Below are positions 1,960-41,148 of a DNA stretch of 64,000 bases, piece by piece. Positions within the stretch are counted from its first letter, which is position 1. Each line of letters starts with the position of its first letter. The notes beneath the pieces were generated by a model, which did not search any database, was not told the DNA's origin, and saw only the letters and a list, made by a program, of their open reading frames with translations. This stretch comes from Octopus vulgaris (Eukaryota): the NCBI GenBank assembly GCA_951406725.2, contig OX597838.1:35216001-35280000 (forward strand), read 5' to 3'. The translations under genes and the position numbers were made by a program.

Positions 1960-2570
1960 CTAAGATTCCACTGAGGTCAACTTTGCCTTTCATCCTTTTG
2001 AGGTTGATGTAATAAGTACCAGTTGAGTACTGAGGTCGATGTAATTGACTAGCTCCTTCCTCCAAAATTTCAGGTCTTGTGCCTATAGCAGAAAAGATTA
2101 TTGTTATTAGTTTAGGTGACCAGCTGGCAAAATCATTAACATGTTGGGCAAAATGCTTAGTGAAGTTTCTTCTGCTTCTTTACCTATTTCTTTATTACCT
2201 ACAAGGGGCTAAGCACAGAGGGGACAAACAAGGACAGACATAGGTATTAAGTCAATTACATTGACCCCAGTGCGTAACTGGTACTTAATTTATTGACCCC
2301 GAAAGGATGAAAGGCAAAGTCGACCTTGGCGGAATTCGAACTCACAACGTAACGCAGACGAAATACCGCTAAGCATTTCGCCCGGCATACTTACGTTTCT
2401 GCCATTTCGCCTTCTGCTTCTTTACCGTTTGGGTTTGAATTCTGCCAAGGTCGACTTTACCTTTCGTTCTTTTTGGGTTGATAAAGTATATACCAGCTGA
2501 GCAGTGGGATCGATGTAATTGACTTAGCCACTCCACCAAAATTCTTAGCCTTGTGCTAAAGCTTGACGCC
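1960..2570 (+). mobile_element. Two tandem old D-type SINEs; the second is split by a young D copy
   Basis: Diverged GAGGTCGACTTTGCCTTTCATCC...GATGTAATTGACT body and (ATT)n tails. Confidence 0.8.
2185..2410 (-). mobile_element. Young D SINE nested antisense in an old D SINE
   Basis: 16-bp TSD CTTCTGCTTCTTTACC at 2169-2184 and 2411-2426; central GACTTTGCCTTTCATCCTTTCGGGGTC..TAAATTAAGTACCAG resembles the Meta-SINE domain. Confidence 0.92.
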
Positions 2571-2614
2571 ATTATTATTGCTAGTTGTGTGAATTTCTTT
2601 CAGTACTTCAGTTT

Positions 2615-2776
2615 ATCATCATCATCATCGTTTAACGTCCGCTTCCCATGCTAGCATGGGTTGGACGGTTCGACCGGGGATCTGGGAAGCCAGAAGGCTG
2701 CACCAGGCTCCAGTCTGATCTGGCAGTGTTTCTACAGCTGGATGCCCTTCCTAACGCCATACCCTTCCTAACGCCA
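2615..2776 (-). mobile_element. RTE LINE 3'-end copy (family E), 5'-truncated
   Basis: GGAAGGGCATCCAGC...GGACGTTAAACGATGATGATG on minus strand. Confidence 0.88.
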
Positions 2777-2803
2777 AATATATATATACAATTATTCTTC
2801 ACC

Positions 2804-3139
2804 GTGAAGGTGCATAGCTCAGTGGTTAGAGCATCGAGCTTATGATCGTGAGGTTGTGAGTTCGATCCTGGACCGGGCTGCACGTTGTGTTCTTGAGCAA
2901 GACACTTTATTTCATGTTGCTCCAGTTAAAACTCAGCTGTAGAAATGAGTTGTGACATCACTGGTGCCAAGCTATCGGCCTTTGCTTTTCCCTTGGATAA
3001 CATCAGTGGTGTGGAGAGGGGATACTGGTATGCATGGGTGACTGCTGGCCTTCCACAAACAACCTTGCCCGGACTTGTTCCTTGGAGGGTAACTTTCTAG
3101 GTGCAATCCCATGGTTATTCATGGTCAAAGGGGGTCTCC
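2804..3139 (+). mobile_element. tRNA-Arg-like CORE-type SINE family C
   Basis: A/B boxes, GTTGTGTTCTTGAGCAAGACACTT CORE-like segment, near-TSD TATTCTT(C/T)ACC. Confidence 0.88.
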
Positions 3140-3279
3140 TATTCTTTACCATATTGCAGTTCACCTATGACAGTTTATTATTTAAGCCTTTGTTGATTCC
3201 TCCATGGTGTTGTTTTGCATTTATAATAAAATTAATATATACAGATTATAGAAATAATAAAAAAAAAATACACAGTATA

Positions 3280-3440
3280 GGCGCAGGAGTGGCTGTGTGG
3301 TAAGTAGCTTGCTAACCAACCACATGGTTCCGGGTTCAGTCCCACTGCATGGCATCTTGGGCAAGTGTCTTCTACTATAGCCTCGGGCTGACCAAAGCCT
3401 TGTGAGTGGATTTGGTAGATGGAAACTGAAAGAAGCCTGT

Positions 3441-3473
<33 letters not shown>

Positions 3474-3694
3474 GTTTGTGTGTCTGTGTTTGTCCCTCTA
3501 GCATCGCTTGACAACCGATGCTGGTGTGTTTACGTCCCCGTCACTTAGAGGTTCGGCAAAAGAGACCGATAGAATAAGTACTGGGCTTACAAAGAATAAG
3601 TCCCGTGGTCGATTCGCTCGACTAAAGGCGGTGCTCCAGCATGGGTGCAGTCAAATGACTGAAACAAGTAAAAGAGAGAGAGAGAGAGAGAGAG
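3280..3694 (+). mobile_element. SINE family A, full length
   Basis: Complete head, microsatellite and tail. Confidence 0.93.
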
Positions 3695-4102
3695 TACAGT
3701 ACTGTTTCTACTTCATGGATTTTCACCTATCACGGTGAGGTTTGGGAACATAACCCTTGCAACAGTTGAAGGATTACTGTACTTATATTCTTTTTTTAGT
3801 TTCAGTGAATGGACTGAGGCTATATTTGGGCAGTGAGATTGAGTGTTTTTATCAATGATATAGACCCTTGTACTTTATATGACATTCATTTTATTAATCT
3901 CTATTACGTGAATGGCTATGTTCTCCTAAGTTACGTCCCTTCCTAAAGTTACCTTAACTTTACTGATTTAGATACTGACTGGTATTTTACTGCAGTATAT
4001 TAAAACAAATGTGCATACACATATATGTGGTATAGCTGTGTGGTTGGGAAGTTTGCTTTGCAACCATATGATTATTGGTTCTATCACACGGCACTAAAAT
4101 GT

Positions 4103-4138
<36 letters not shown>

Positions 4139-4285
4139 AAAATTTAATAAGGGTAGAAATTGATATTAATCAATTAAAACCAGTGGCCCAGCATATTAAA
4201 AAAATCCGAAGATTAAAATATTTTTACATAGAAAATTTAAATGACTGACCACTAAAAGTGGACGGTCAACATGCTAGATATAGAC

Positions 4286-4317
<32 letters not shown>

Positions 4318-5345
4318 TCTATGCAACCTTTTACTTGTGTGTGTGATGGGCTTCTGTCTATAACAAGTTTCTCTCACTTGTCATTGGTCCATCTTGGGTT
4401 GACCTATGCTGGAAGATACTTGCTCAAGGTACTGAGAAGTGAGATTGAACCTTCAATATAGCCGTATAGCCATGTGAAAGCACATACATTTTAACTAATT
4501 CTCATGGTCAAAGTATTAAAATAACTGTGTATTTGTATAAGTATCTAATGAATTATCTTCCTTTTCATTATTATTTTTCTACTTTTTATTTTTAATGAAA
4601 AAGTTAAAAATAATTATAGTTAGAAATATTTAGAAGTGAATTTTATTAAGAAAAAAATTTATTTTTGAAACTTTTTCATTTATCTTATTATTATCATTGT
4701 TATTATAAGTTGTTGTTTTCTTTATTATTGTTGTTGTTGATATGACAGAATTAATTTTTATTTTTATCTCATGTCATATAAACACAGCAGTAAATTTTAA
4801 TGGTTCCAGATAGCTTCTTCCTAGAAAGAATATAAAATAAAAACCAAAATAAAAATAAAAATTTCAATTTTCTGTTGAGCAGGCTATTTTTTTTTTTCAT
4901 TTTTTATTTTCTGTTCTTTTATTTGTTATTTTTTTAAAATATATTTTTAGAAATTATTCTCTATCACATACTTATATCAAGAATTTCCCTTTGAAAACAA
5001 AGAAATGACATTTTTTTTATAAATGGAAAGTTAAATTCCAATATATATATATATACACATCCATACACACACACACACATCTGTGTGTGTGTGAGTGGGG
5101 AGTGGCTATGTGTATGTGCACATTATGTAATGCTTATATATATAAATATATATATACACACATGCCCATAACACATCCATATGTACATATATTATACAAA
5201 TACATACATATGTATATATACTTTTCATCAACATCCTGTTCATTTATGTATATTCTAGCTTGTGTGTGTACGTGTGTGTGTCCTTAATTCTACTGAAATC
5301 TGTTCAGCTTTTAACATTTTACATAAGCTATTATTATTATTATCA

Positions 5346-5379
<34 letters not shown>

Positions 5380-5856
5380 ATAAAACTCTAAAATAACAGC
5401 AACAATAACAAAATTTAACAACAAACACAACTACACTGACAATAGGAACAATAAAAAAATTAATAATAACAATAAGAGAAATACACATAAGATGATAATA
5501 ACATTAGCAACAATACAAAATATTCCAAATTTTCTCCTTATCCTCCCCATCTTTCAATCTATCCAAGATTTGTCAAAAGTAAGAATTTTTTTTTCCTTTT
5601 TCCTATTGTTGAATGGTTCTCTTTTCTTTCTTTCTTTCTTTCCTTTTGTCTCTTTCACTTTCAGATCATTCACAACTTTCTTGCATCCTTCTCTTGTCTA
5701 TTTTTGATAAAAGAAACAATTTGAATTTACTTAGAAACGTTACAGCTGATGGCAAATTAGTAAAGTTGTTATAGTGTAAGATAGATGGAGACGTAAAACC
5801 TTGTGTTATTTTTTTTCCCAGTTTTCTGCACTCTGAGTTCAATATCTACTGAAATT

Positions 5857-6280
5857 GTCATCATTTCCATGTCCACTTTGCCATGCTTGCATGGGTCAGA
5901 TGGAATTCATTGAGAAACATTTTTCTACAGCTGGATACCCTTGCTGTTGCAAACACTTAACTTGCACCTAAGTAAGGTAATATTTCTCCATGACCAGACA
6001 TGTTTCCATGAAGACTGGGAATGAATTGTCCCACTTGCATGACAGACATTCATTTAAAACTATCATGTGATGTCAAGTCAAGGAGACAGTAACACACACA
6101 CACACACACACACACGATGGATGTCTTTCATTTGCCAAATCCATTTGCGAAGTTTTGCTTAACCTGGAGCTATAGTTAGAAGACACTTACCCAAGGTGCC
6201 CCTCAGTGGATCTATACTCAAGTACTCAAGACCACATGACCCTGAGAATGGAAGCAAGTTTTTCAACCACCCAGCCATGT
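5857..6280 (-). mobile_element. Old SINE family G (family A head plus RTE-type tail)
   Basis: Collinear with the 61378-61801 copy. Confidence 0.75.
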
Positions 6281-6300
6281 TTCTGTGCAGTTTCTATTGG

Positions 6301-6527
6301 TTAACCCATTAGCATTTAAATTGAACTATCAGGCCCAAATACTTCACCTGTTTTATGTTAAAATTGGTCAGATCCAGCCTCTCATGCCTACCCTTCAATG
6401 CCAGTCTAAAAATAGGTAATCATGTTATTGAAACCTCAAAGCCACAAGATAATGCATGATTAATTCAAAACAATGTGAATAAAGAAGTGTTACATTTCAT
6501 AGTGTAATCTGAATGGTAAAGGGTTAA
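6301..6527 (+). mobile_element. TTAA-specific (piggyBac-like) MITE family 1
   Basis: TTAA-CCC...AAAGGG-TTAA termini; homologous to 10711-10940. Confidence 0.85.
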
Positions 6528-6867
6528 CGAAGGCACATGGCTCAGTGGTTAGAGTGTCGAGCTTACGATCGTGAGGTTGTGAGTTCGATTCCCGGACCTG
6601 GCTGCACATTGTGTTTGAGCAAGACACTTTATTTTGACGTTGCTCCAGTTAACTCAGCTGTAGAAATGAGTTGCGACATCACTGATGCCAAGCTGTATCG
6701 GCCCCTTTGCCTTTCCCTTAGATAACATCAGTGGTGTGGAGAGGGGACACTGGTATGCATGGGTGATTGCTGGCCTTCTACAAACAACCTTGCCCGGACT
6801 TGTGCCTTGGAGGGTAACTTTCTAGGTGCAATCCCATGGTCATTCATGACCGAAGGGGGTCTCCTTC
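6528..6867 (+). mobile_element. SINE family C inserted at the MITE end
   Basis: TSD TAAAGGGTTAA at 6517-6527 and 6868-6878; anticodon-like CTTACGAT. Confidence 0.9.
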
Positions 6868-7055
6868 TAAAGGGTTAAAATGAGACTAAGGTAGAAGACA
6901 TTTGACCAATGTGGTCTGCTGTGGGATCAAACCAGAGGTCATATAGTTATGAAACCACGACTGTTGGATATTTCATAACCTTTACACACTCACATGTCTT
7001 CCAAATTTCATTCATGAGAGAGTGCCTCGGAACAATCTCAGTTCAGTGACTGAAA

Positions 7056-7497
7056 CAATAATGATTTCAAATTTTGACACTTGGCCAGCAATTTCAGAGG
7101 AGGTGGGTAAGTCGATTACATCGACCCTAGTGTTCAACTGGTACTTATTTTACTGAAGGCGGTGAGCTGGCAGACACGTTAGCGTGCCGGGCGAAGTGCT
7201 TAGCGGTATTTCGTCTGCCGTTATGTTCTAAGTTCAAATTCCGCCGAGGTCGACTTTGCCTTTAATCCTTTCGGGGTCGATTAAATAAGTACCAGTTACG
7301 CACTGGGGTCGATGTAATCGACTTAATCCGTTTGTCTGTCCCCTCTGTAGTTAGCCCCTTGTGGGTAGTAAAGAAATAGGTACTTATTTTATTGACCCCG
7401 AAAGGGTGAAAGACAAAATTGACCTCGGTGCAATTTGAATTTAGAACGTGAAGACGGACAAAATGCTGCTAAACATTTTGTCCAGCATGCTTACAAT
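7056..7497 (-). mobile_element. Old D-type SINE (host of a nested young D)
   Basis: Two halves join collinearly across the insertion. Confidence 0.85.
7157..7378 (+). mobile_element. Young D SINE nested antisense in an old D SINE
   Basis: 17-bp TSD GGTACTTATTTTA(C/T)TGA at 7140-7156 and 7379-7395. Confidence 0.92.
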
Positions 7498-7753
7498 TGA
7501 AACAACAATGTGTGTGTGTGTGTTGGAGTAGGTCTGTAGAAGAAAAACTAAAGATAGTCAAATCAGGATGAAGTGAAGAACTTAATGCTAATGAAAGATT
7601 TGGATGATAGTCAGAAAAACTTGAATAATTAGATTTGTTGTCTTAAATGTAGAGATGCTTTGAATCCAGAACTATTTGTTATTTGTAATGTTATATTCTG
7701 TAAACACACACACACATACGTGTGAAAAAGAATACAGACAAACCCACACAAAT

Positions 7754-7812
<59 letters not shown>

Positions 7813-8175
7813 AGTGCACACGCACACATGTGCATACAGGCAAGTGTGCACAGTGATAAATGTACAAATACATCTGATAATAAACCTTTTGTTAACATAT
7901 ATGTATATCCTGTAGGCAATGTTACAATGTCCGTCCTCCTCCTTCTCCTCCTCCTCTGCCAGAGGAGGATAGATGTGAGCAGTGTTCCATGTTGATAGGT
8001 CACTGTGGCGGCTAATGAATTTACATTTGCTTATTGAGGTGGTCAAAAGTTGGTGATGTCATTTTCTTGTAGAAGTTTGTATATCTGTACAGTTTATAGC
8101 AGATACAGTGTTTGAATACAAGTGATGTTACACCTTTGTTCTGTCTCTTATATTGCTTGTATGTATGTATGTATG

Positions 8176-8208
<33 letters not shown>

Positions 8209-8210
<2 letters not shown>

Positions 8211-8621
8211 TCTTTTTCTTTTACTCTTTTATTTGTTTCAGTCATTTGACTGCGACCATGCTGGAGCACCGCCTTTAGTTGAGCAAATCGACCCCGGGAC
8301 TTATTCTTTGTAAGCCCAGTACCTATTCTATTGGTCTCTTTTGCCGAACTAAGTGACGGGGACGTAAACACACCAGCATCGGTTGTCAAGCAATGCTCGG
8401 GGGACAAACACAGACACAAAAACATATACACACACACACACATATATATATACATATATACGACAGGCTTCTTTCAGTTTCCGTCTACCAAATCCACTCA
8501 CAAGGCATTGGTCGGCCCGAGGCTATAGCAGAAGACACTTACGCAAGATGGCATGCAGTGGAATTGAACCCGGAACCATGTGGTTGGTAAGCAAGCTACT
8601 TACCACACAACCACTCCTGTG

Positions 8622-8623
<2 letters not shown>
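8209..8623 (-). mobile_element. SINE family A, full length
   Basis: Complete element between (TA)n tracts. Confidence 0.93.
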
Positions 8624-8663
<40 letters not shown>

Positions 8664-8686
8664 TATACACACACACACACACACAT

Positions 8687-8908
8687 TCAGTAATCCCTCG
8701 ACTATCATGGGTGTTACGTTCCAAAACCCTCAACAATAGTAAAAATCCACAAAGTAGAAACAGTACTGTACTGTATATTTTTTAAAATTATTTTTATAAT
8801 TTGTATAGATTTATTTTATTATAAATGCAAAACAACACCATAAAGGAATCAATGAACAATCATAGGTGAACTGCAATAGGTGAATCGTGGTATGGTGAGG
8901 GATCACTC
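8687..8908. mobile_element. Tigger/pogo-like MITE
   Basis: Imperfect TIRs CAGTAATCCCTCGACTATC ... GGTATGGTGAGGGATCACTC followed by TA. Confidence 0.65.
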
Positions 8909-9240
8909 TATATATAATATATGTGTGTGTGTGTGTATATATATATGTATATGTTTATATGTATATATATAATATATATATGATTGTGTATGTATGTGTG
9001 TGTATATATATATGTATGTATATGTTTATATGTATATATATAATATATATATGATTGTGTATGTATGTATGTGTGTTTTCTATATATATGTGTGTATGTA
9101 TATATGTATACATACACATGCTGGAAAATGCACAGATGTAAACATACAAAACATATGTGCACATGCATATTTTCATACATCAACACACACACACACACAT
9201 ATATATATTTAGCATGCACAAGTTGGCACAAACATGCATA

Positions 9241-9516
9241 ATCATCATCATCGTTTAACGTCCATTTTCCATGTCAAGCGATGTTGGGGACCAAACACAC
9301 ACACAAACATATACACACACACACAGACACACACACACATATATATATATATACGACGGGCTTCTTTCAGTTTCTGTCTACCAAATCCCCTCACAAGGCT
9401 TTGGTCGGCCCGAGGCTATAGTGGAAGACACTTGCCCAAGGTGCCATGCAGTGGGACTGAACCCGGAACCATGTGGCTGGTAAGCAAGCTACTTACCACA
9501 CAGCCACTCCTGCGCC
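9241..9516 (-). mobile_element. Chimera: SINE A head and microsatellite joined to the last ~33 nt of RTE family E
   Basis: Minus-strand junction CATCGCTTGACA/TGGAAAATGGACGTTAAACGATGATG. Confidence 0.82.
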
Positions 9517-9519
9517 TAA

Positions 9520-9563
<44 letters not shown>

Positions 9564-10320
9564 TATATGTATGTGTGCATATGTGTTTCTGTCATCAAAC
9601 CAAACATGGCCAGCAACAGTGATATGGTACAAAGTAGATAAGCAAATCCATTTTATATAAAAGCATGTAATGTAGTATCCTAGTGTATTTCGAAAGTTGA
9701 ATGAAATGTCTTCGATCATAAGTCTATGAAGATTGACTTCAAACTGAACAGCTACAACAATGCAATTAGCAAGATCAATATGGCCATAACACCACCAACA
9801 ATGCCCGCCCACCATCACAAACATCTCGATCAATGCAACCCACATCATCATCACTATCAACCCACCAGCTGTTGAATCCAATTGGCTATTACAAATAACA
9901 TCATATGTCAACACCTGTGTGTGAGTGTATGAGTGCATGTGTGTGAGTGTGTATATTCAAGTGTGTGTTACTGTGTGTGTATGAGTGTGCTTGTGAGTAT
10001 GTGTGCATGAGTGTATGTGTATGTATGTCTTGAGTCAGAAGTGCAAGAGGCAAATTGCCTATAAAACCTGGTGACACTTCAGTTAACAGTAATGATATAG
10101 TACTTTCTCTTCTGCAGTCTTTCACATTTTCATCTCATTTTCATTGTTAAATCCATAGAAATAAGACAGTTTTCTGCTCTCACAAAGCAAATCTTTCCTG
10201 GTCCAATTATTTTTTACTACATTTTTGTTGTGGATAATTAATTGCTGCTGTTGTAGGATTTACCTTAAATTAAAGTTGTCTGTAAAGACAGTATCAATTC
10301 GACCTGAAGGCAGTTGTGTA

Positions 10321-11267
10321 AAAAGGAACCGTGAAGAGATTACAGTGGGTATTAAACTTGATGTTTTAAAAAAAGGATTTATGTGGGAGTAAAACTAAAT
10401 TTGCCAAAACATTAAATCTTGCAATCTCTACAGTGGGAACAATATGTAACAACAGAGAGAAAATTATGTCAAGTGCTCAAGAAGCCACTCTGTTAATTGA
10501 CAAGATCTTATTTTCCATAGATATACTATAATGCTTAAAATGGAATGATCCTTGAATAGATGGATCGAAGATCAAAATTGGTGTAATGTACTGATATGCA
10601 TGATTGTAATTAAAAAAGAGCCAAAAGTTTATATGGTGCTTTGCAGAGAATGGAATGTGAAACTTCTCATGGAAAAACCTTTTTGGCAAGTAAAGGCTGG
10701 TTTGAAAGGTTTAACCCTTTAGTGTTTAAACTGGCCACATCCGGCCCAATATATTCCACATGTTTTATACTCAAACTGGCGATTTCTAGCCTCTCACACC
10801 TAACCTACAGTGACATTCTAAAAATAAACATTCACATCATTGAAACCCCAAAGCTATAAGATAATGCATGATTAATTCAAAACAATTTGAGTGAAAAAAG
10901 TATTACATTTAACAGAATAATCTGAACACTAAAGGGTTAAGAAGCAAATGAATTTTCACAACATAAAAATGATAGGGGAACTGTGATTGCTGAAGGGGAC
11001 TGCACACCAGAACAAGTATATAATATTAATGTAACTATACTTTACTGGAAGTTCGTACTGGCTAAAACATATCTTGAGAAGAAAAATCAACATCAAGATT
11101 TAAAGCTTCCAAAATTTGTTTGACACTTCTTTGGGGGTGAAGTATCAATGGTGATATGAAATTAAAGCTGTTATATGTGTATCACTCCAAAATTCTAAGG
11201 GCTTTCAAGGGTTACAAAAAATTCAATCTACCTCTGATTTGGCATTCAAATATAAAGGCATGTTTAG
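10321..11267 (+). pseudogene. Tigger/pogo-family transposase relic (psq-type HTH, CENP-B HTH, start of DDE_1)
   Basis: Frameshifted pieces AKTLNLAISTVGTICNNREKI, RWIEDQ, FLASKGWFERF/KKQMNFHNIKMIGE, EQVYNINVTILYWK, FKASKICLTLL, GDMKLKLLYVYHSKILRAFKG...WHSNIKA match Tigger motifs; possible right TIR near 11451-11466. Confidence 0.9.
10711..10940 (+). mobile_element. TTAA MITE family 1 inserted in the Tigger transposase
   Basis: TTAA TSD at 10711-10714 and 10937-10940; removal restores codons ERFKKQ. Confidence 0.93.
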
Positions 11268-11468
11268 AAATGGTTATAAAGGTGATCATGTTGTTTCTTC
11301 TCTTTTCTTTTCTTGTGCTTCTTTTCCTTTATCTGAGAAAGTCTGTAGGAATGCAATCTCACTTGGTAATATAAAAATCATTCGAAGATTAATTTTGCAT
11401 TATGGAATTCCGCGTTATGGCCAGATTTTCAGGAACACATTATTTCTGTTAAGCAAGGGATTCCTCTA

Positions 11469-11500
<32 letters not shown>

Positions 11501-12030
11501 CATACATGCACAGACATGCATATACATATGTATGTGTGTATATTGATAAATAAATATATATATATATATATATATACACAGGTATATGTGCACACGGACA
11601 CACACACACACATACATACACACACATTCACGCATGTGTCTGTGCATGCAGCTGCAGACACATATTCTTTTGGAAACCACATGAAATAATCTAGAAATCA
11701 ATGGAACACAATGCTATATTGTGAAATCAAAGCAATGCACCAGCAGGTGGTTATATTAATATGAAAAAACAACTGTTTACTGTAGACCATAATTTATGTA
11801 GTGCATCTTGATAAACGTACAATTTTGTTTGATAATAAACATTTTGATGATAAATATATGTATACAATACTTAGATACTTTCCAAGTGATTCAGAAGTCC
11901 CTTCAGCATTTAAATAATACATTAATTTTTTTATTGATATTTTATTAGTTTTGTTTTTATATATATTTGATATTGTCTTTGCTATATTTTTAATATCTTT
12001 TGATATATCATTATTGCCATAATATATATA

Positions 12031-12440
12031 GGCGCCGGAGTGGCTGTGTGGTAAGTAGCTTGCTTACCAACCACATGGTTCCGGGTTCAGTCCCACTGCG
12101 TGGCATCTTGGGCAAATGTTCTTCTGCTATAGCCCCGGGCCGACCAATGCCTTGTGAGTGGATTTGGTAGACGGAAACTGAAAGAAGCCTGTCGTATATA
12201 TGTATATATATATATATATATGTGCGTGTGTGTTTGTGTGTCTGTATTTGTCCCCTAGCATTGCTTGACAACTGATGCTGGTGTGTTTACGTCCCCGTAA
12301 CTTAGCGGTTCGGCAAAAGAGACTGATAGGATAAGTACTGGGCTTACAAAGAATAAGTCCCAGGTTGATTTGCTCAACTAAAGGCGGTGCTCCAGCATGG
12401 CCGCAGTCAAATGACTGAAACAAGTAAAAGACTAAAAGAG
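12031..12440 (+). mobile_element. SINE family A, full length
   Basis: Complete element, TA-rich flanks. Confidence 0.93.
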
Positions 12441-13458: not shown

Positions 13459-13705
13459 TATTTCATTACTACCCACAAGGGGCTAAACACAGAGAGGACA
13501 AACAAGGACAGACAAACGGATTAAGTCGATTACATCGACCCCAGTGCATAACTGGTACTTAATTTATCGACCCCGAAAGGATGAAAGGCAAAGTCGACCT
13601 CGGCAGAATTTGAACTCAGAACGTAACGCAGACGAAATACCGCTAAGCATTTCGCCCGACGTGCTAACGATTCTGCCAGCTCGCCGCCTTCAACCAGCTC
13701 GCTGC
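13459..13705 (-). mobile_element. Young D SINE (not nested), with a short duplicated 5' piece
   Basis: TSD CTAAATTATCC at 13448-13458 and 13706-13716. Confidence 0.92.
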
Positions 13706-15262: not shown

Positions 15263-15566
15263 TTATCATCATTTAATACCTGTTTTCCGTGCTGACATGA
15301 ATTGGATGGTTCAACAGGAGCCAGCAAGCCAGAGGATTGTACTAAGCCTCAGTGTCTGCTTTGGTATGTTTTCTATTACTGGGTGCCCTTCCTGAAGCTA
15401 ACCCCTTTACAGAATGTACTGGGTGCTTTTTATGTGACACCAGCACTAGAGAGGTCATCTACTATCTTGCAAGATAAGGCCCACAATTGAAGGAGGGAAT
15501 TTTATTCCAGGTGATGATATAGGGACAAGAACTGATGTTTTGTTGTAGAGAAAAATACATGGCTAC
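15263..15566 (-). mobile_element. Old RTE-type 3'UTR copy (family F; also 16947-17127, 17198-17460, 41699-41925, 49716-50200)
   Basis: Diverged relative of the family E tail with (ATC)n end and shared internal segments. Confidence 0.7.
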
Positions 15567-15567
15567 C

Positions 15568-16061
15568 CTCCTCAAAGACATACATCATCTCGAAAGAGTC
15601 CAGAAGCTGGCTACCTGCATGGTTCTTGGTCTCAAGCATTTGTCTTATGAAGAAAGGCTGAAGACGCTCGATCTTTATTCTCTAGAAAAACGCCGCCGCC
15701 GTGGTGATCTCATTCTCGCTCACAACATCATAAGCGGAAAGTGTAACCTCTCGAAAGAGCTGTTCTTCACTCCTGCTCCAGAGCGTCAGCTGTGGGGTCA
15801 CTCCGAAAAGCTCTATCTGCAACGATTTCATCTCAATCGAAAGAGAGGGGCTTTCTCCGTCCGGGTTGCGGATCCGTGAAATAAGCTGTCGGACGAGATA
15901 GTGAAGATGCCGACGACCGCTCGGTTCAAGGTCTCTCTTGACCACAAATGGCCTGAACTCTTTGCATGAACACCACCCTATACATAACTCCCTGTCCCCC
16001 TACATGGCCTTGCTTTTGCTTTTTGAGCCAAAAAATTAACTTAACTTAACTAACTTAACTT
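15568..16061 (+). mobile_element. CR1-clade LINE 3' end
   Basis: KDIHHLERVQKLAT...LSYEERLKTLDLYSLEKRRRRGDLI...GHSEKL...AFSVRV; premature stop; (AACTT)n tail. Confidence 0.93.
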
Positions 16062-18974: not shown

Positions 18975-19752
18975 TAAGGATAATAATGATCCTTTCTACT
19001 AAGGCCTAAAATTTGGTAGGAAGGGGTAAGTCGATTACATTGACCCTAATGTTTCACTGGTATTAAATTTTTTGATCCTAAAAGGATTAAATGCAAAGTC
19101 GACCCCAGCAGATTTTGAACTCAGAATGTAAAGATAGATGAAATACCGTGAATAATTTGTTTTCTTTATTCACCAGTAAGGGTTCAGAAAAAACATTTGG
19201 ACTCAAAGCCTAAAGATTTGGAAGAAATGCTGTTTAGCATGTTGTCTGATGCACTCCTGATTCTGCCAGCTTGCTGTCTTAATAATAATAATGATAATAA
19301 TATTAGTAAGTCTTTCTACTATAGGCATAGGGCCAGATATTTCTGGAGAGAGGGCTAGCTGATTATATCGACCCCACCCCCAATGGTCATCTGATATTTA
19401 TTTTATCAACCCTAAAAGGATGAAAGGCTAAGTTGACCTTAGTGGTATTTGAACTAAGGCAGCGAGCTGGCAGAATCGTTAGCACGCCGGGCGAAATACT
19501 TAGCGGTATTTCGTCTGCCGTTACGTTGTGAGTTCAAATTCCACCGAGGTCGACTTTGCCTTTCATCCTTTCGGGGTCGATAAATTAAGTAATGGACTTA
19601 ATACCTATGTCTGTCCTTGTTTGTCCCCTCTATGTTTAGCCCCTTGTGGGAAATAAAGAAATAGGTATTTGAACTCAGAACATAAACAGCCAGAAAGAAT
19701 GGTGCTAAACTTTTTTTCTGGTGTGGTGATGATTTTGCTAGTTCACCACCTT
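18975..19752 (-). mobile_element. Cluster of old D-type SINEs separated by (AAT)n
   Basis: Repeated diverged D bodies in the same orientation. Confidence 0.8.
19456..19663 (+). mobile_element. Young D SINE nested antisense in an old D SINE
   Basis: 12-bp TSD GGTATTTGAACT at 19444-19455 and 19664-19675. Confidence 0.92.
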
Positions 19753-19763
19753 AATAATAATAA

Positions 19764-20022
19764 TCATCATCATCATCATCATCGTTTAACGTCCGTTCTC
19801 CATGCTAGCATGGGTTGGACGGTTTGACCGGGGATCTGGGAAGCCAGAAGGCTGCACCAGGCTCCAGTCTTATCTGGCAATGTTTCTACAGCTGGATGCC
19901 TTTCCTAACACCAACCACTCCATGAGTGTAGTGGGTGCTTTTTACGTGCCACCTGCACAGGTGCCAGGCGAGGCTGGCAACGGCCACGGTCGGATTGGTG
20001 CATTTTACGTGCCACCGGCACA
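19764..20022 (-). mobile_element. RTE family E 3' copy
   Basis: (ATC)n tail; stops at ACGTGCCACCGGCAC; abuts an old D (to ~20225). Confidence 0.9.
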
Positions 20023-20469
20023 AGAACTTGAAATTTTGATGGGGAGGGTGGCACTAGCCAGTCATATCAACCCTAGTTCTTAACCGGTTCTTATTTTATT
20101 GACCCTGAAAGGATTTAAAGGCAAAGTCAACCTCGGCAGCATTTGAACTCAGAAGGTAAAGACAGATGAAACACTGCTAAGCGTTTTGTCTGGCATGCTA
20201 ACGGTTCTGCTCGTTCATGGCCTATAACAACATCAGCAAAAATAACAGGTATATATTTGGCTTATGTCTTCTGCTGTTACTTGAAGTTTTTAACAGTCAG
20301 ATGGCCATATTGGTCAATAACCAATTATTATAATTCAACGGCAGCCATCTGGTTGATTGAACATTCTCAGAACTTGAAGTAACAACGAAAGGCAGAATAT
20401 GAATAAATACAATTACAATCCACACAGTGTGTTTTGAGTACCTCAGCACTTCTCTTATTTGTTATAAAC

Positions 20470-30417: not shown

Positions 30418-30483
30418 TATGTATATATACACACATACACATGTGTGTGTTGTGTGTATGTATATATATACACACATACATAC

Positions 30484-30523
<40 letters not shown>

Positions 30524-32083: not shown

Positions 32084-32325
32084 TGGCACGTAAAAAGCAC
32101 CATCCGACCGTGGCTGTTTGCCAGCCTTGTCTGGCACCTGTGCAGGTGGCACATAAAAAGCACCCACTACACTCATGGAGTGGTTGGCATTAGGAAGGGC
32201 ATCCAGCCGTAGAAACATTGCCAGATCAGATTGGAGCCCGGTGCAGCCTTCTGGCTTCCCAGACCCCAGTTGCACCGTCCAACCCATGCCAGCATGGAAA
32301 GCAGACGCTAAATGATGATGATGAT
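32084..32325 (+). mobile_element. RTE family E 3' copy
   Basis: Begins at GTGGCACG; ends (GAT)n. Confidence 0.9.
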
Positions 32326-32739
32326 GTATGTGTTTGTCTTTTTGAGTGTGGAGGTAACTACACACTGTGTGAGTGCATGCATATTTCTCTATGACTGTGT
32401 GAACACGTTTGTGCGTGTGCGTATGTTTGATTACATGTATACATGTGTGTGTACAAAGGTGACTACTGTGTGTGCGTATGTGTGCACGAAAGAGGCTGGT
32501 GTCAGAAGTGTGATGCTACAGCCATGACAATAGTAGTCTTCCTTTTATTTTTATGCATATGTGGGCTATCATTTATGGTTATATCATCAAATGTAGCTTT
32601 CTATATTTTTTTTAACCTTGTAATAGCTAAATTATCAAGATGCAGGGCCAAACATATTTATCGGCTTTTTTCAGTATATTTGATGGGGAGGAGTGTAGCT
32701 GATGTAAAAATTTTCTTATGTATACCAAAAAGGATCAAA

Positions 32740-32954
32740 GGTCCTTTTCGGTTTCCCTGATTCTGTGGCATATATATATTCCCCCTCTGGACTGAACACT
32801 GATCTGTCGCAGGATTACTCATTTAGTTAGCTGTGTGTATGGCAGCAGCATGAAATGAAAGAATTTTGCTCAAGAGCACAATACATCACCCGGTCCAGGA
32901 ATCAAAATCACAATCTGATGATCATGAGTGCTACATCCTACCTACTAAGTGTGT

Positions 32955-32958
<4 letters not shown>
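32740..32958 (-). mobile_element. Old CORE-type tRNA SINE (related heads at ~31735-31925 + and ~44428-44690 +)
   Basis: TTGTG(C/T)TCTTGAGCAAAA CORE-like segment after a decayed tRNA head. Confidence 0.65.
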
Positions 32959-32994
<36 letters not shown>

Positions 32995-33382
32995 CGATAA
33001 TAGCAGTCATATCTCTGGCAAATCATATCTGATCCCACTTAATCATCTGTTCCTTCATCTTTCCCTTTCAGTATGTTATCTATTGATTTAAAGCTTTATT
33101 AGAACTCATACCTGGGGCCCTCCCATACCCGCTGCATGCATAACTGCACATTTATGTGGTCACATGTAAACAGACACACACGCACACACACACACAGCTA
33201 CACAGCACACACTGTTGTATGTGCATGCATGAATCTGAAACACTGTAACTATTCTGAGTAGATTATAGTTACATACATACACGTATTTGCAAACACATGC
33301 AACTGCACACAAATTTATTCACATCTGTATTCACATGTACAGCCAGCTGTGTGTATATATATATATGTATATATATATATTA

Positions 33383-33578
33383 TCATCATCATCATCATCA
33401 TCATCATTTAGTGTCTGCTTTCCATGCTAGCATGGGTTGGACGGGTCAACTGGGGTCTGTGAAGCTGGAAAGCTTCGTCAGGCCCAGTCAGATCTGGCAG
33501 TGTTTCTACGGCTGGATGCCCTTCCTAACGCCAACCACTCCGTGAGTGTAGTAGGTGTTTTTTACGTGCCACCTGCAC
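33383..33578 (-). mobile_element. RTE family E 3' copy
   Basis: Stops at ACGTGCCACCTGCAC. Confidence 0.88.
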
Positions 33579-33657
33579 AGTCATATATATATATATATAT
33601 ATTGGATCGTTAGCCCCTACACGCAATTTTTTTCTCTCCTTGTTTCTTTTCTGTGTA

Positions 33658-33694
33658 CTTTTCTGTCGAAGAGCGTAGGCTCGAAATGTAAAAG
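33658..33694 (+). ncRNA. Degenerate minimal hammerhead motif in a Penelope-type fragment (~33602-33792)
   Basis: CTTTT-CTGTCGAA-GAGC(GTAG)GCTC-GAAA-TGTA-AAAG; core A6 replaced by T; element sits in (TA)n. Confidence 0.55.
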
Positions 33695-33985
33695 ACTTGT
33701 TTTATTTCTATTCCTGAGCGCCATACCAATACATTGTTTGTTTGTACTCCACCTGCCTTTGTCTTTTGTTTATTTTCGTAAACCTTCCGTTATATATATA
33801 TATATATATAGGTGTGGCTGTGTGGTAAGAAGCTTGCTTCCCAACCACATGGTTCTAGATTTAGTCCCACTGCATGGCACCTTGGGCAAGTGTCTTCTGT
33901 AGCCTCAGAGTGACCAAAACCTAGTGAGTGGATTTGGTAGGGGGAAACTAAAGGAAGCTCATTCTACATTTTTATCTATATATAT

Positions 33986-34213
33986 AAATACAGTGTACAT
34001 ATAAACACATAAGAGGTATCCATCATAGGATTCCTTGCACACTAGAAGGAACAGCTAAAGTACAAACCACTGTTAGGTGTATATGTATACATGTGTGCAC
34101 ATGTGTGTGTGTGTGCATATGCCTTATATTGGTTTGGACTTTAGCTGTTCCTTCTAGCATGCAAGGAATCCTATGATGGATACCTCTTATGTGCTTAAAT
34201 GTACACTGTATTT
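33986..34213. repeat. Hairpin with 84-bp arms (33986-34069 and 34130-34213) and 60-bp loop
   Basis: Five mismatches by eye; loop matches the reverse complement of 34853-34897. Confidence 0.95.
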
Positions 34214-34345
34214 CTATGAATAATATATAGTCTATTGACTAATTTTTCTACACGCTAGGCCACAGGTAGTAAAAATTTCTAAAATCTTTATTACCCTGAT
34301 ATTATTAATTATCTGAACCACCTATTGATCCCCTCCATTTTCTTA

Positions 34346-34485
34346 TTTCTCTCTCTCTCTCTCTCTCTCTCTGTATATATATACATATACATACACATAT
34401 ATATATATATATATATGTATGTATATATATGTGTATGTATGTATATATGTATATATGTATGTATGTATGTATGTATATATGTATG

Positions 34486-34517
<32 letters not shown>

Positions 34518-34663
34518 TGTATATGTATATATATATGTATGTATGTATATGCATGTATGTATGTATATATGTATATATATATGTATGTATGTATATGCAT
34601 GTATGTATGTATATGTATGTATGTATATATATATGTATGTATGTATATATATATGTATGTATG

Positions 34664-34697
<34 letters not shown>

Positions 34698-34752
34698 TAT
34701 ATGTATGTATGTATGTATATGTATATATATATATATATATGTATGTATATAT
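34346..34752. repeat. (CT)n plus (TATG)n/(TA)n microsatellite
   Basis: Directly visible. Confidence 0.95.
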
Positions 34753-35288
34753 ATTTACACATACATATACTTGCACTCATGCTCACATATATACCCCTGA
34801 CACACATATATCCAACTAATCTGATCAACCCATAACTACATGCACACATGCAGGCATATGCGCACATACACATGTGCACACATGTATACATATACACTGA
34901 CTAAAACATACAGAGAGATACGACCATACACAAATAAACGGACAGTTGACAGTGATTGACTGCTTTAAGTGTCTGTGATGTTACTGTCACCTGTAGTGTC
35001 ACACTTCTGACACCTGTCTCTTTCACTGCATGCATGCAGTATTTACCTTGGTACTGAAAAAGTCACACACATGTATACACATAGTCAAACATATGCACAT
35101 GTGCAAACATGTGTTCCCACAGTCATACAGAAATGTGCATGCACTCGCAAGCTGTGTAGTCACCTTCGTACTGATAAAAGACAGACACGCATGTGTACTT
35201 ATAATCACACATACGCACGTGCACAGACATGTGTTCTGTGCTCACACATTCTCACACAAACAAGCATGCATGCAAAAGCATCATACTT

Positions 35289-35367
<79 letters not shown>

Positions 35368-35563
35368 AATAAATGGAGTTTAACACAGGTATAATTCAAA
35401 TACTTATATATTATACAAAGAATTCCATGTAAACCCGAAGTTTCTACCTTTAAAAACAAGGAGTTACAACCTCTTTACTTGTGTGATTATTTTGCTACCC
35501 TGGTAACTATCTATTTTTTCCATGTTAATTGTTGACAAGGAAAAAATGCACTATATATATATA

Positions 35564-35726
35564 GGCACAGGAGTGGCTGTGTGGTAAGTAGCTTGTCTAC
35601 CAACCATATGGTTCTGGGTTCAGTCCCACTGTGTGGCAACTTGGGCAAGTGTCTTCTACTATAGCCACAGGCCAACCAAAGCCTTGTGAGTGGATTTGGT
35701 AGACGGAAACTGAAAGAAGCCTGTCG

Positions 35727-35762
<36 letters not shown>

Positions 35763-35970
35763 CGTGTGTGTGTGTCTGTATTTGTCCCCTAGCATTGCTT
35801 GACAACCGATGCTGGTGTGTTTATGTCCCCGTTACTTAGCGGTTCGGCAAAAGAGACCGAAAGAATAAGTACTGGGCTTACAAAAAGAATAAGTCCTGGG
35901 GTCGAGTTGCTCGATTAAAGGTGGTGCTCCAGCATGGCCGCAGTCAAATGACTGAAACAAGTAAAAGAGT
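35564..35970 (+). mobile_element. SINE family A, full length
   Basis: Complete element in (TA)n. Confidence 0.93.
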
Positions 35971-36284
35971 ATATATATATACACACACAAACAAATGCAC
36001 ACAGACATATACACGCAAACACAAAATCCCTCATCAGATACATACATGTATATAAGCACACATATTTGGACATATGCATAGAGACATGCACATGTGTATG
36101 CAGATGCATGCACATGCATTAGTGAAGTGTGCAGTAATGTCATGGTTCTCAAGTTTGTTGATTAGCAATTATATAATTACAAAGGCTACAAGGATAAATG
36201 CGTGGTTATAATGACCGCAGACATAACTGTGTGGTCATAACAGCTACAGCATTGCTGTGTGGTTACAATAAATACATAGTGCTG

Positions 36285-36407
36285 GTGTGGCTGTAAGAAG
36301 CTTGCTTCTGAACTGCATGATTTTAGGTTCAATCCTGCTGTGTGGCATCTTGGGTAAGTGTTTTCTACTATGGCCTCGGGCCGATCAAAACCTTGTGATT
36401 GGATTTG

Positions 36408-36447
<40 letters not shown>

Positions 36448-36860
36448 GGTATGTGCATGTGTGTGCATATGTATATATGAGTATATATACATGTGTGTGT
36501 ATGTATATGTGGGTGTGTTTATATATATGTGTGTGTCTATATATAAAGATATATGGCAGATGTGGTGTTTATGTATATACACACTGTATACATAAATAAC
36601 AGAAGCATGTATATGTGTGTGTGTGTGTGTGTGTGTCTATCTGTCAGTCTTTGTGTATGTGTCCCCCACCACTGCTTGACAACCGGGGTTGGTTTGTTTA
36701 CATCCCCATAACTTAACAGTTCAGTAAAAGTGACCAATATAAAAAGCACCAGGCTTAGAAAGTAAGTACAGGAGTCAATTTGTTCAAGTAAATCCTTCAA
36801 GGTGGTGCCCCAGCATGGGCACAGTTGTATGACTAAAAGAAGTAACAGGTAACAGATAAT
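36285..36860 (+). mobile_element. Older A-type SINE with expanded internal microsatellite
   Basis: Head at 36285-36408; tail at 36640-36860. Confidence 0.78.
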
Positions 36861-37275
36861 AAAAATTGTTCAAAGGAAGTATTTAAATAACTATTGTACA
36901 TATGTTTCCATAATAGATATTGATACAATAAATATCTATCATTTCATCGGCAACTGAAGTCTAAACAAATGTTTAAAATGAAATAAAATATAATGTTTAT
37001 TATTACACATTGACAACTACAAACCATTTAGTTTATTGTGTGTGTCTGTGTGTGAATTTGTGTGCATATGATCGTTATTGGTATTAAAAATGTCAACAGT
37101 GAGTTGAAAATTAGTAGAAAGTGCTTCCATGGTTTGTGTGCTATCACTGGCTTTAGAGGTGGTTGGATGACTCGTTTGAACTGTAGTTGTTGACAAATGC
37201 TTCTTAAGGTTTTTTCCCCACGAATCTAATTGTGTTACTGTTATTGGTTTATGAAAATTGTTTTGTGCAAGCTGT

Positions 37276-37503
37276 TTAACCCTTTTGTTACCATATTTCT
37301 GTTGAGATGCTCTGTGTTTCTTTCAATTACTTTAAATATAACAAAGAATTTAGTAAAATAACTGAGTTATCATTCAGCTAGTGTTAGGAACATAAATTGT
37401 GACTAAGGTTTGGTGGAAGATATTAATTGAAAACTTATGAAAACAAGACATTTGTACTCAGAGCCAGAGCCGGTTTCAGGCGGGCTGGTAACGAAAGGGT
37501 TAA
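37276..37503 (+). mobile_element. TTAA MITE family 2
   Basis: TTAA TSD and CCCTTT(T/C)GTTAC TIRs. Confidence 0.93.
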
Positions 37504-37855
37504 ATGAGAAATTTTAAGTAAATATTTCCGTATTTGTTTCATTTCTTAAAAAAGGAACTTTTTTCGTTTGTCACAAAAACTCATGCCTTTAATTTAACCG
37601 AAGATAATTTGCATTCTTTGAGAGTAATGTTAGAATATAGAGCATAGTTGTTCAGTGTCATGAAAAAGATATAGAGCCTGCTATCATCATCATCATAATG
37701 CTCACTTTTCCATACTTGCATGAGTCACATGGAATTTGTTGATGCAGGCTTCCTATAACCAGATGGCTTACCTGTAGCCTACCCTCACCTGTTTCCATGT
37801 AAAGTAATATTTCCATATGACCTGACATGTTTCCACAAAACTACTGTCAAGTAAT

Positions 37856-38182
37856 GGATGGAATGGAAACACTCCGTCGGTTACGACGACGAGGGTTCCG
37901 GTTGATCCTACCAACGGAACAGCCTGCTTGTGAAATTAACGTGTAAGTGGCTGAGCACTCCACAGACACGTGTACCCTTAACATAGTTCTTGGGGATATT
38001 CAGCGTGACACAGAGAGTGACAAGGCGGCCCTTTAAAATACAGGTACAACAGAAACAGGAAGTAAGAGTGAGAGAAAGTTGTGGTGAAAGAGTACAGCAG
38101 GGATCACCACCATCCCCTGCCGGAGCCTCGTGGAGCTTTAGGTGTTTTCACTCAATAAACACTCAAAACGCCCGGTCTGGGA
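37856..38182 (-). mobile_element. SINE family B, 5'-truncated, inserted in an old G SINE (~37685-38340)
   Basis: TSD TGTCAAGTAAT at 37845-37855 and 38183-38193. Confidence 0.9.
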
Positions 38183-38555
38183 TGTCAAGTAATACGCACA
38201 CACACACACACACTCGAGCACTATGGACCACTTTCAGTTTCTGTCAACTAAATCCACTTATAAGGTTTTGGTGCCACACAGTGGGATTGAACTTGAAACC
38301 ATATGGTTTGAAAGTAATCTTCTTACTACACAACCATGCTTGTTACTATGATGTTAATATTCTATGTTATTATAAAGGATAAACTCTATAGAGAGGGGAT
38401 ATTTTGTTTTCTCAGTTGTCAAATAGAGTGTGTGACAAAGAACTCGTACTAATCATATTTCTATGGATTGCTGAAATAAATTTATATGTCAAAAAGATCT
38501 TTTTATATTATTTAATACTAAAACAAAAGCCATAGTAGGGGATCTGTTTCCTATT

Positions 38556-38940
38556 TTGCATTCAGCTTTAGACTGGGAGATGCAAGTGGACTTAAAGGGC
38601 AAGCTTGACTTCCCAGAGGAGATAGTGATAATATTACTCCAAGCAGACATGTTCCTGCTCTCCAGAAATACAAAAGCAATCATCATGATCAAACTCACAG
38701 TGCCCTGGGGGGACAGACTTCACTGGGTAAAGAAAATGATGCCCTTGTCAAGGAGGTGCATGTGGCTGCATTCCTCATTGAAGTCAGTTGCTGCAGATTT
38801 CCAGTTAGATTAGTGCACTGTTTCCTGCAGAAGATAGGTCTTGAACCTAGATATCTGAAGAAAGCCACCAAGGAGATAGGCACAGTGGTTGAAACTAGCT
38901 CAAAGTGGCTACGGTTGATAAAAGATTAGAAGTGGAACCC
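38556..38940 (+). pseudogene. Hero-clade non-LTR retrotransposon REL-domain relic
   Basis: DWEMQVDLKGKLDFPEEIV..LQADMFLLS..TKAIIMIKLTVPW then, after a frameshift, IEVSCCRF...ETSSKWLRL; matches the Hero DW..VDL...FP..I...RPD...ELTVPW / EVGCRGF pattern. Confidence 0.83.
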
Positions 38941-39606
38941 TTCCATAGGTGAAGACTAGCTCAGTCTTCTCTGCCCCTTTCAGGCAAAGTGTACAGGCTA
39001 AAAGGTGAAATGCTTGAAACCCTGTGATACCTGCTGATGATATGGAAAGGTTTCAAGCATTGCAATGGATTTAGAAGACCTTGTAAAACCTCTGAGTTGC
39101 TCCTGAAATTTCTGTGTAGGGAAAAGCATCTCTGTCTCTCCCAACACCACTTGACAACCAGTGTTGGTTTGTTTACATCCCTGTAACTTAGCAGTTTGGC
39201 AAAAGAGACCAGTAGAACAAGAATTAGACTTTAAATAAGCACTGGGTTGATTTGTTTGACTAAACCCTTCAAGGGTGTGCCCAAGCATGGCTGCAGTCCA
39301 ATGACTGAAAAAGGGAAAGAAATAAAGATAAAAATATTTTTTTAATTTGAATTAAATGCAATAAATTATTGACTCAGCCAAAATAAAATAGTAAGAATTA
39401 TTATTAATTTTCTTCTTAGACTCTAGGAAAACAAAAACCATTCTGAGAATTTTTTGATAGACTTGATTTCAGCTGAAAAATGATGTCTGGCAATAACTTT
39501 TTGCCTAAAACCACATCCACAGAGAGAAGAATATCTTGCAAAATCCAATATTTCAATGTCAAACTGAAGCTGTGTATGATGAATAGGCTGTTGGATATGG
39601 CAATAC

Positions 39607-39969
39607 ACTCTTTACTCTCTCTCTCTCTTTTACTTGTTTCAGTCATTTGACTGTGGCCATGCTGGAGCACCGCCTTTAGTCGAGTAAATCGACCCCGGCA
39701 CTTATTCTTTGTAAGCCCAGTACTTATTCTATCGGTCTCTTTTGCCGAAGCGCTAAGTGACGGGGACGTAAACACACCAGCATCAGCTGTCAAGCAATGC
39801 TAGTTGGACAAACACATACACACAAACACATACACATAAACACACACATATATATATATACATATATATACGACAGGCTTCTTTCAGTTTCCGTCTACCA
39901 AATCCACTCACAAGGCATTGGTCGGCCCGGGGCTATAGCAGAAGACACTTACCCAAGATGCCATGCAGT
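39607..39969 (-). mobile_element. SINE family A, 5'-truncated
   Basis: Tail and body intact; inverted relative to an older A tail at ~39130-39330. Confidence 0.92.
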
Positions 39970-40082
39970 TTTACAACCAAAACCATCAACACAAAAATGT
40001 GAATAAAAAAATACAAAAAAAGAAAAAACCGATCAAAACCTAAAGTACTGAATGAAACATAAAATAATAATAATAATAATAA

Positions 40083-41148
40083 TCTTTTCTACCATAGGCA
40101 CAGGGCCTGAAATTTTGGGGTTGGGGGCTAGTCAATTACATTACCCCCAGTGTTTAACTGGTACTCAGTATTTCATCAACCTCAGTACTCAAGTGGTAAT
40201 TATTTTATCAACACACCACTGCCCAACCGGTACTTCGGCGAGCTGGCAGAAACGTTAGCATGCCGGATGAAATGCTTAGCGGTATTTCGTCTGGCGTTAC
40301 GTTGTGAGTTCAAATTCCACCGAGGTTGACTTTGCCTTTCATCCTTTCGGGGTCGATAAATTAAGTACCAGTTCCGCACTGAGGTCGATGTAATCGATTT
40401 AATACCTATGTCTGTCCTTGTTTGTCCCCTCTATGTTTAGCCCCTAGTGGGTAATAAAGAAATAGGTACTTCTTTCATCAACCTCAGTACTCGAGTTGTA
40501 CTTCTTTCATCAGCTGTGGAAGGATGTAAGGTAAAAAATCAACCTTGTTAGAATTTGTACCCAGAACATGAGGATGGACAAATCATTGCTGAATGCGGTG
40601 GCTGATAAAATCATAACATGCCAGACAAAATGTCTGATTTGTTAATGATTCTGCCAGCTCACTTCATTTTCATAAAATAATGAAAATAATAACTTTTACT
40701 AGCACAGGCACAAAACTAGAATTTTTGGGGAAAACATTTACTTGTTTATATGAAGTAAAGTACTTGACTGGTACTTTATTTTATTGACTCTGATAGGATG
40801 GGAAGTAAAGCTGACTTTGGCATAATTTGAACTCAGAACATAAAGACTCAACAAACATCACTAGGCATTTTGTATGCTCTGACAATTTTGACAATCCACT
40901 CACTACCCTTAAAATAATAATAATAATAATAATGGTTTCAAATTTTGGCACAAGGCCAGCAATTTCGGGGGAGGGGATGAGTTGAATATATTGACACCAG
41001 TACTCAACTGGTACTTATATTATTAACCCAGAAAGGATGAAAGGCAAAGTCAACCTTGGCGAAATTTGAACTCAGAACATAAAGATAGACTACATGCTGC
41101 TTAAGCATATCACCTGGTTTGCTAATGATTGCGCCAGCTCACTGCCTC

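Follow-up and report, generated by a model that had tools for sequence, protein, structure and literature searches.

Do the short interspersed nuclear elements (SINEs) of an octopus genome seek out their own relatives? The question is raised by a 64,000-nucleotide stretch of Octopus vulgaris DNA (contig OX597838.1, positions 35,216,001 to 35,280,000, or G000:C25:35216001-35280000 in the 2.8-Gb, 227-contig genome searched here). In this stretch, hereafter the window, four of the seven young copies of a SINE called D interrupt an older D copy in the opposite orientation, a pattern that the initial annotation read as antisense self-targeting guided by RNA. The genome as a whole gives a different answer: self-targeting by young D is real, but its orientation is sense, and the proposed R-loop mechanism finds no support. 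Among the older relatives that retain one particular internal site, about 30% carry a young D copy there in sense, and the DNA makes it likely that such copies arise from pairing between a read-through RNA and the nicked target.

The D elements and how they were counted

All D elements have a 166-nt head and core in common and differ in their tails. The young tail is 65 nt long and terminates in GAAATA, while old tails come in three types, all terminating in ATT repeats. Young D is about 231 nt long, has 83,307 exact tail ends genome-wide (exact pattern of young tail plus GGTA; 471 for a control pattern) and is flanked by target site duplications (TSDs) of 8-20 nt, so that it is short, interspersed and highly repeated in the manner of SINEs. 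A- and B-box-like motifs are visible in its sequence, in which ARAGORN found 0 genes and Rfam no tRNA match at E<=0.1 (microsatellite hits only); young D is a putative tRNA-type SINE. Its core may resemble the Meta/Sauria domain.

D copies in the window were annotated by profile. Genome-wide figures are exact-pattern counts, which are lower bounds of unequal stringency between patterns. A blind sample of 80 stretches of 10 kb (800 kb) was also classified; its 105 tail hits, less 5 LINE (long interspersed nuclear element) ends, gave 100 young tails, two hits first classed as "other" being reassigned to sense by eye. This sample inflates D density about 1.4- to 1.9-fold relative to the exact counts, and low occupancy rates are accurate to about a factor of two. 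Duplicate loci (L001, L008, L012, L097) were excluded prior to counting.

A fixed sense site in older relatives

About half of the young tails run directly into position 48 of D (41,545 of 83,307), creating units of 184 bp. A variant of the tail, with AAGAAA at its end, is joined to position 15 instead; it gives 217-bp units and accounts for 9 of 54 classified joins. At 4,698 joins an old-type tail follows 125-150 nt on; since these are old-tailed copies bearing a young unit at position 48, the joins are not merely self-duplication. Set against the 15,202 old-tailed copies that keep GGTATTT at such a distance, 31% of sites are occupied, and in the blind sample 16 of 56 old-tailed copies were occupied in sense (95% interval 17-42%). 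Per site, sense occupancy exceeds the antisense rate (0.34%) about 90-fold and that of generic GGTATTT[AG] sites about 45-fold. Occupancy falls with the distance of the old tail type from the young one, being 13/22, 4/23 and 5/39 from closest to most distant (all loci). The five old-tailed hosts with a join at position 15 all have the allele that fits the AAGAAA tail variant.

Most sense joins leave no TSD and look like dimers. At 254 position-48 junctions the join is followed by a TSD from position 48 and then a second head (L028 and L110 are examples), and these are ordinary insertions by target-primed reverse transcription (TPRT) at that position. Seamless joins outnumber them by about 160 to 1. 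None of the seven young copies in the window is joined in sense, so this class of nesting was invisible there. At G000:C5:87874181-87875487 the D head, as far as position 48, is repeated in a 67-bp tandem array, a satellite grown from a sense insertion that kept its TSD and second head.

Hosts, inserts and heads

The two units of a composite differ in age. Over the same columns of 26 composites, a set that includes the mis-parsed L091 and the atypical L090 and L107 position 4, the old-tailed unit is 8.4% diverged and the young unit 5.2%, the former being the more diverged in 19 of the 23 pairs without a tie (p=0.004); for free old copies the figure is 12.2%. Host units have mutated independently, with 161 of 190 pairs lacking any shared private change and all three tail types represented. 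Units that had descended and moved together, as in an Alu-like dimeric family, would look otherwise: here the 3' units are older, of three tail types, and carry private changes.

Hosts match the young sequence for about 12 nt from position 48 and then revert to the old one. A match at >=10 of 11 positions from 48 is found in 19 of 20 hosts vs 15 of 56 free old copies (p=7e-8), in part because the closest old type matches natively; within the two distant old tail types, T50 is present in 9/9 hosts vs 25/50 free copies (p=0.007). Further on, at positions 61 and 63, the young allele has a frequency of 0.30 and 0.42 in hosts, 0.24 and 0.22 in free old copies, and 0.84 at both in inserts. The heads of two-unit composites are 8.7% diverged vs 4.7% in solo copies, their bodies 4.3% vs 3.8% (p=0.02, n=15). 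The composite head thus looks host-derived, which would make the join seamless.

An empty allele was sought by comparing contigs of four public runs with L073:1-1900; the comparison was swamped by repeat copies, and 0 pieces spanned the junction. The depth of the young tail relative to the shared core was about 0.3 in organisms B-D and about 0.06 in run X11 (organism E), a hint of a much smaller expansion of the young family in organism E; contig depth is a poor measure of copy number.

Antisense insertions in the window and genome-wide

How, then, are the nested copies of the window to be explained? Profile annotation and exact TSDs, all beginning with GGTA, bear out that four of the seven young-tailed copies split an old-tailed D in antisense. 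One, on the minus strand at 2185..2411 (16-nt TSD, 2169-2184 and 2411-2426), splits a plus-strand host at 2116..2574 near position 65-70, leaving its head at 2116-2178 and the remainder at 2403-2574. The other three are plus-strand copies in minus-strand hosts. That at 7157..7378 (13-nt TSD, 7140-7152 and 7379-7391) entered the core GGTACTT site of the host at 7057..7498, near position 136, and that at 19456..19663, which has an internal deletion (12-nt TSD starting GGTATTT, 19444-19455 and 19664-19675), split the host at 19312..19750 near position 85. The copy at 40236..40464 (8-nt TSD, 40229-40236 and 40465-40472) lies in a host at 40078..40663 whose core site is internally duplicated, within the duplicated copy of the 136 site. 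The insertions thus occupy three distinct positions of the shared head and core (about 70, 85 and 136), as had been described. Folded as hairpins, the four products have predicted energies between -171 and -200 kcal/mol, which merely reflects their inverted geometry.

Old D makes up 2,479 bases, or 4.0% of the window outside young copies (first estimated at roughly 5%). When the window's 313 GGTA sites are weighted by genome-wide class rates, the expected antisense nesting is 7.8% and P(>=4 of 7) = 1.1e-3, a value for a pattern chosen after the fact among about 44,000 such windows genome-wide. The neighbouring 36 kb contain one tailed young copy, which is not nested. The antisense cluster is a real local excess, in which chance plus after-the-fact choice is not distinguishable from a local effect.

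Genome-wide, antisense nesting is about as common as the short GGTA target motif predicts. Young tails join the antisense core site at 438 of 128,368 sites (0.34%). Among 30 such junctions fetched, all from contigs 1-2 and judged by eye, about 25 have a TSD and about half lie in old-tailed hosts; with TSDs at most of them, these are ordinary TPRT insertions. The D antisense strand is rich in the motif: of the 194 sites that read GGTACTT[AGT] in the blind sample, it supplies 138. Genome-wide, 1,444 junctions are of this class, and about 73% of them are estimated to lie in D (81 end in A among 100 listed). The odds ratio of D antisense vs non-D GGTACTT sites is therefore about 1.1 (wide interval, 0.3-7), and motif enrichment accounts for the antisense class. 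This was the simpler alternative offered by the initial annotation, which had also named an explanation by motif density as the outcome that would count against its own R-loop idea. Sorting the 100 blind young tails gives 0 nested in antisense, 56 joined in sense and 44 elsewhere; none of the 56 old-tailed copies is occupied in antisense. Old hosts may be enriched up to about twofold for antisense insertions, as many sites are in young, less exposed hosts. Within the antisense core site, the GGTATTT variant makes up 20 of 100 junctions vs 2 of 100 sites among the matches listed. A near-perfect palindrome at L096/L097 (C1:219830808-219831117) consists of young D fragments inserted antisense in each other.

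The remaining young copies of the window lie outside old D. Those at 13459..13690 (minus strand; 11-nt TSD starting GGAT) and 46768..47000 (plus strand; 14-nt TSD starting GGTT) are not nested, and the plus-strand copy at 48678..48908 lies in a (TA)n tract without a clear TSD. Position 48-59 of the second, the site of sense joining genome-wide, falls by annotation at 46817..46828 (plus strand) and is unoccupied. By profile annotation, a full-length old-tailed D at 40928..41146 (minus strand) is also unoccupied, and in another old D at 53929..54085 (plus strand) a sense-oriented C SINE breaks the sequence near position 161. This insertion, likewise reported before, spans 54095-54435 and has a short AT-rich duplication at both ends, after which the host tail resumes. 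Old-tailed D copies also cluster head to tail, each beginning in the (ATT)n tail of the previous copy (window 18986-20221 and 40078-41146; L045, L049, L052, L058, L074).

The LINE that shares the tail

The last ~45 nt of the young tail (46955..47000 on the plus strand in the window, by alignment) align to the 3' end of a LINE, so that SINE and LINE share a tail. The coding remains of this LINE show matches of 69-75% to proteins that carry RVT_1 and zf-RVT domains, and its class, derived from these homologues, fits the L1/Tx1 group; Pfam and PDB scans of short LINE fragments returned nothing relevant. In endonuclease-targeted Tx1 systems (Tx1-Mar/SINEU, Keno, Kibi) the partner LINE is found at the same target. 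In the one LINE family tested here it is not: 0 of 68 ends, among those listed, were followed by GGTA, and the ends lie on TATC or TA repeats. The LINE is either a microsatellite-targeting Tx1-like family or one with a repeat tail of its own.

Copies of this RVT_1 and zf-RVT LINE with the D tail are nearly always followed by (TATC)n or (TA)n (L035, L053, L104, L106), and about 6,000 such ends were counted genome-wide, the reverse strand being mostly double-counted. Tails flanked by (TATC)n were at first taken for a D lineage, which was rejected once they proved to be LINE ends. A LINE 3' fragment occurs twice in the window, at 15523-16045 and 42199-42738, in opposite orientations and with a short reading frame resembling open reading frame 2.

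Proposed read-through pairing and its rivals

Could the RNA itself choose the site? We find it somewhat easier to believe than to doubt that, in the manner of R2, the nicked primer is splinted by a read-through RNA, and that homology joins the 5' end. A copy that had once landed at position 48 would be transcribed from its RNA polymerase III head through the tail into the remainder of the host, giving an RNA that ends in GGUAUUUCGUCU... An L1/Tx1-type reverse transcriptase (RT) would hold the tail in a fixed register and prime wherever nicked DNA pairs with this extension. The extension could pair with a nicked bottom strand opposite GG, GGTA or GGTATTT in the top strand, and most fully opposite the 12 nt of the D sense site. 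Matches of 2-7 nt would then yield ordinary insertions at GG, GGTA and GGTATTT, including the window's four antisense copies, and a match of about 12 nt would make a hot spot of any D sense strand. A single G-U wobble would allow GGTACTT to pair as well; at the antisense site, the perfectly matching GGTATTT variant is indeed the favoured one. In a sense host the end of the complementary DNA (cDNA) would be complementary to the host's head and could anneal there, leaving neither TSD nor doubled head. Each product would be a new read-through source and still a target, and so could grow into 184-bp arrays.

Insertion frequency tracks the match to the extension, a correlation, rising from about 0.1% at GGTAC (3,876 junctions at an estimated 2.6 million sites) through about 0.25-0.3% at GGTACTT and about 0.7% at GGTATTT[AG] (2,554 of ~360,000 sites) to 31% at the sense site. 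None of the 68 listed LINE ends is followed by GGTA, and two tail variants are found at two unlike sites; together, these observations point to the RNA rather than an enzyme as what sets the site. A wider reading, which we offer tentatively and with rather more doubt than belief, is that the SINE has acquired its own guide: its read-through RNA, perhaps aided by pairing of head and core with the sense host, would retarget a loosely specific L1/Tx1-type RT, leading to seamless homing into tens of thousands of older relatives and to the capture of their promoters and loci. A change of a few 3' letters would change the site (48 vs 15), which would amount to a natural RNA-programmed retro-insertion.

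Several observations weigh against read-through pairing. The RNA extension is deduced from DNA, and the LINE is a relative of the tail, not a proven partner. The step from 0.7% at 7 nt to 31% at about 12 nt is steep beside the fourfold rise between 4 and 7 nt. With 254 cases, sense insertions that retain a TSD do not exceed generic ones in frequency; either about 99% would have to be joined without a seam, or the seamless class has another origin. The head allele at position 19 follows the host tail type only weakly (4/6 vs 1/9, p=0.09), and at 43 three composite heads are of the young type. Among young-young dimers, 12 of 16 have the older unit at the 3' end, which is not significant (p=0.16). 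Arrays of >=3 units often have units only 1-5% different, and such near-identity requires same-template copying or DNA-level duplication in addition. Finally, the window's four of seven stays a 1e-3 excess.

The seamless joins could instead come from recombination, be it ectopic gene conversion in which a pre-existing dimer, as DNA or cDNA, is the donor, template switching by RT from old-D RNA to young-D RNA, or a family that retrotransposes as whole dimers. The 160:1 preponderance of seamless joins, the private changes shared within long arrays, and a few hosts that share changes with their insert well beyond position 60 (L004, L031, L002) all speak for it, and tandem SINE arrays are attributed to unequal recombination in the available portions of two reports (PMC10702118, PMC11481361). 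However, if breaks fell at random along the 166 nt of homology, one would often expect an old allele in the insert and a young one in the host at positions 61-63, where inserts are in fact young and hosts old (n=20). A dimer family would share mutations and a single tail type, template switching would yield a young head in place of the excessively diverged heads of composites, and the units of young-young dimers differ by ~8.8%, near the 10% of random pairs. Recombination is rather unlikely to be the source of the joins. Alternatively, position 48 of D may be cut by the site-specific endonuclease of another Tx1-type LINE, much as SINEU owes its site in Mariner-N4 to Tx1-Mar, with the D SINE inheriting the site and the doubled head collapsing later. 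The RVT_1 and zf-RVT domains of the tail-sharing LINE agree with this, as does the frequent targeting of repeats by Tx1 elements, according to the sections of PMC4494074 at hand; many solo TSDs also have TA at positions 3-4, maybe an enzyme preference. Yet the LINE family tested ends elsewhere, each of the two tail variants uses a site that matches its own 3' letters, and the bases upstream of the nick vary freely; a dedicated endonuclease is quite unlikely. As for an R-loop formed by the RNA body on the other strand of the old copy and directing antisense insertion, the window's excess survives motif weighting, and the share of old-tailed hosts among the fetched junctions allows the twofold enrichment noted above. 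Against this stand the absence of antisense nesting from the blind tails, the low occupancy and its odds ratio near unity, the roughly 90-fold predominance of sense, and the GGTA that begins all four of the window's TSDs; we regard it as highly improbable.

Should read-through pairing hold, the target choice of a SINE would be set by RNA and not by a partner endonuclease. Some 12 nt at the 3' end would be enough to redirect an L1/Tx1-type RT, and the 5' join would be seamless. The process would feed itself, each homing event creating a guided source and retaining the site, and would offer a retrotransposition route to the SINE tandem arrays presently attributed to recombination; heads and tails could be swapped between SINE families via the shared core. 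In practical terms, about half of young D copies are not independent random insertions, which affects the dating of copies and their use as presence/absence markers.

Comparison with known systems

Full-text searches of the literature listed no account of a SINE that homes seamlessly and in sense into its older relatives; subscription papers, Repbase entries and supplements may hold one. For the terms searched, the portions available of octopus repeat papers (PMC13282606, PMC8967140) and SINE surveys (PMC4824008, PMC4758252, PMC5804259, PMC3531059) do not mention the pattern. The closest parallels each cover part of what is seen in D.

R1Bm reportedly relies on read-through pairing with its target, as R2 does. 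In R2Ol, RNA past the 3' end of the element has the sequence of the target farther downstream and pairs with its nicked strand, and such pairing lifted insertion from 12% to 96%, according to the part of the report available (PMC6530143); for D the same arrangement is proposed. Both of these elements are autonomous, with a site-specific endonuclease and a target in ribosomal DNA, whereas D is a non-autonomous SINE whose specificity apparently comes from its RNA, and whose targets are dispersed relatives entered by two variants at two sites.

The SINEU/Tx1-Mar pair of crocodilians is also similar. As described in the accessible text, SINEU is mobilised by a Tx1 element, Tx1-Mar, into fixed positions of an older repeat, Mariner-N4, with tandem re-insertion (PMC4494074). 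There, the target is an unrelated Mariner common to LINE and SINE, and TSDs separate the tandem copies; in D the target is homologous, the tested LINE is not found there, and the joins are seamless. SINE-derived satellites of squamates and the TSD-(SINE)n-TSD arrays of the clam Scapharca broughtonii resemble D arrays in having a first unit with a head and later units truncated at one head position (PMC10702118, PMC11481361, as far as these texts were available). Those texts explain them by a single copy that was duplicated or recombined unequally, and in the clam about 3% of copies take part, whereas about half of young D tails are joined and the last unit is often of a different, older family. 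The snap-velcro model of L1 shares with D the idea that pairing between primer and RNA shapes target choice: priming depends on the last 4-10 primer bases, in the available excerpt of that work (PMC3649969). In L1, poly(A) pairs with T-tracts; in D, the pairing would use a complex word derived from the flank of an earlier insertion.

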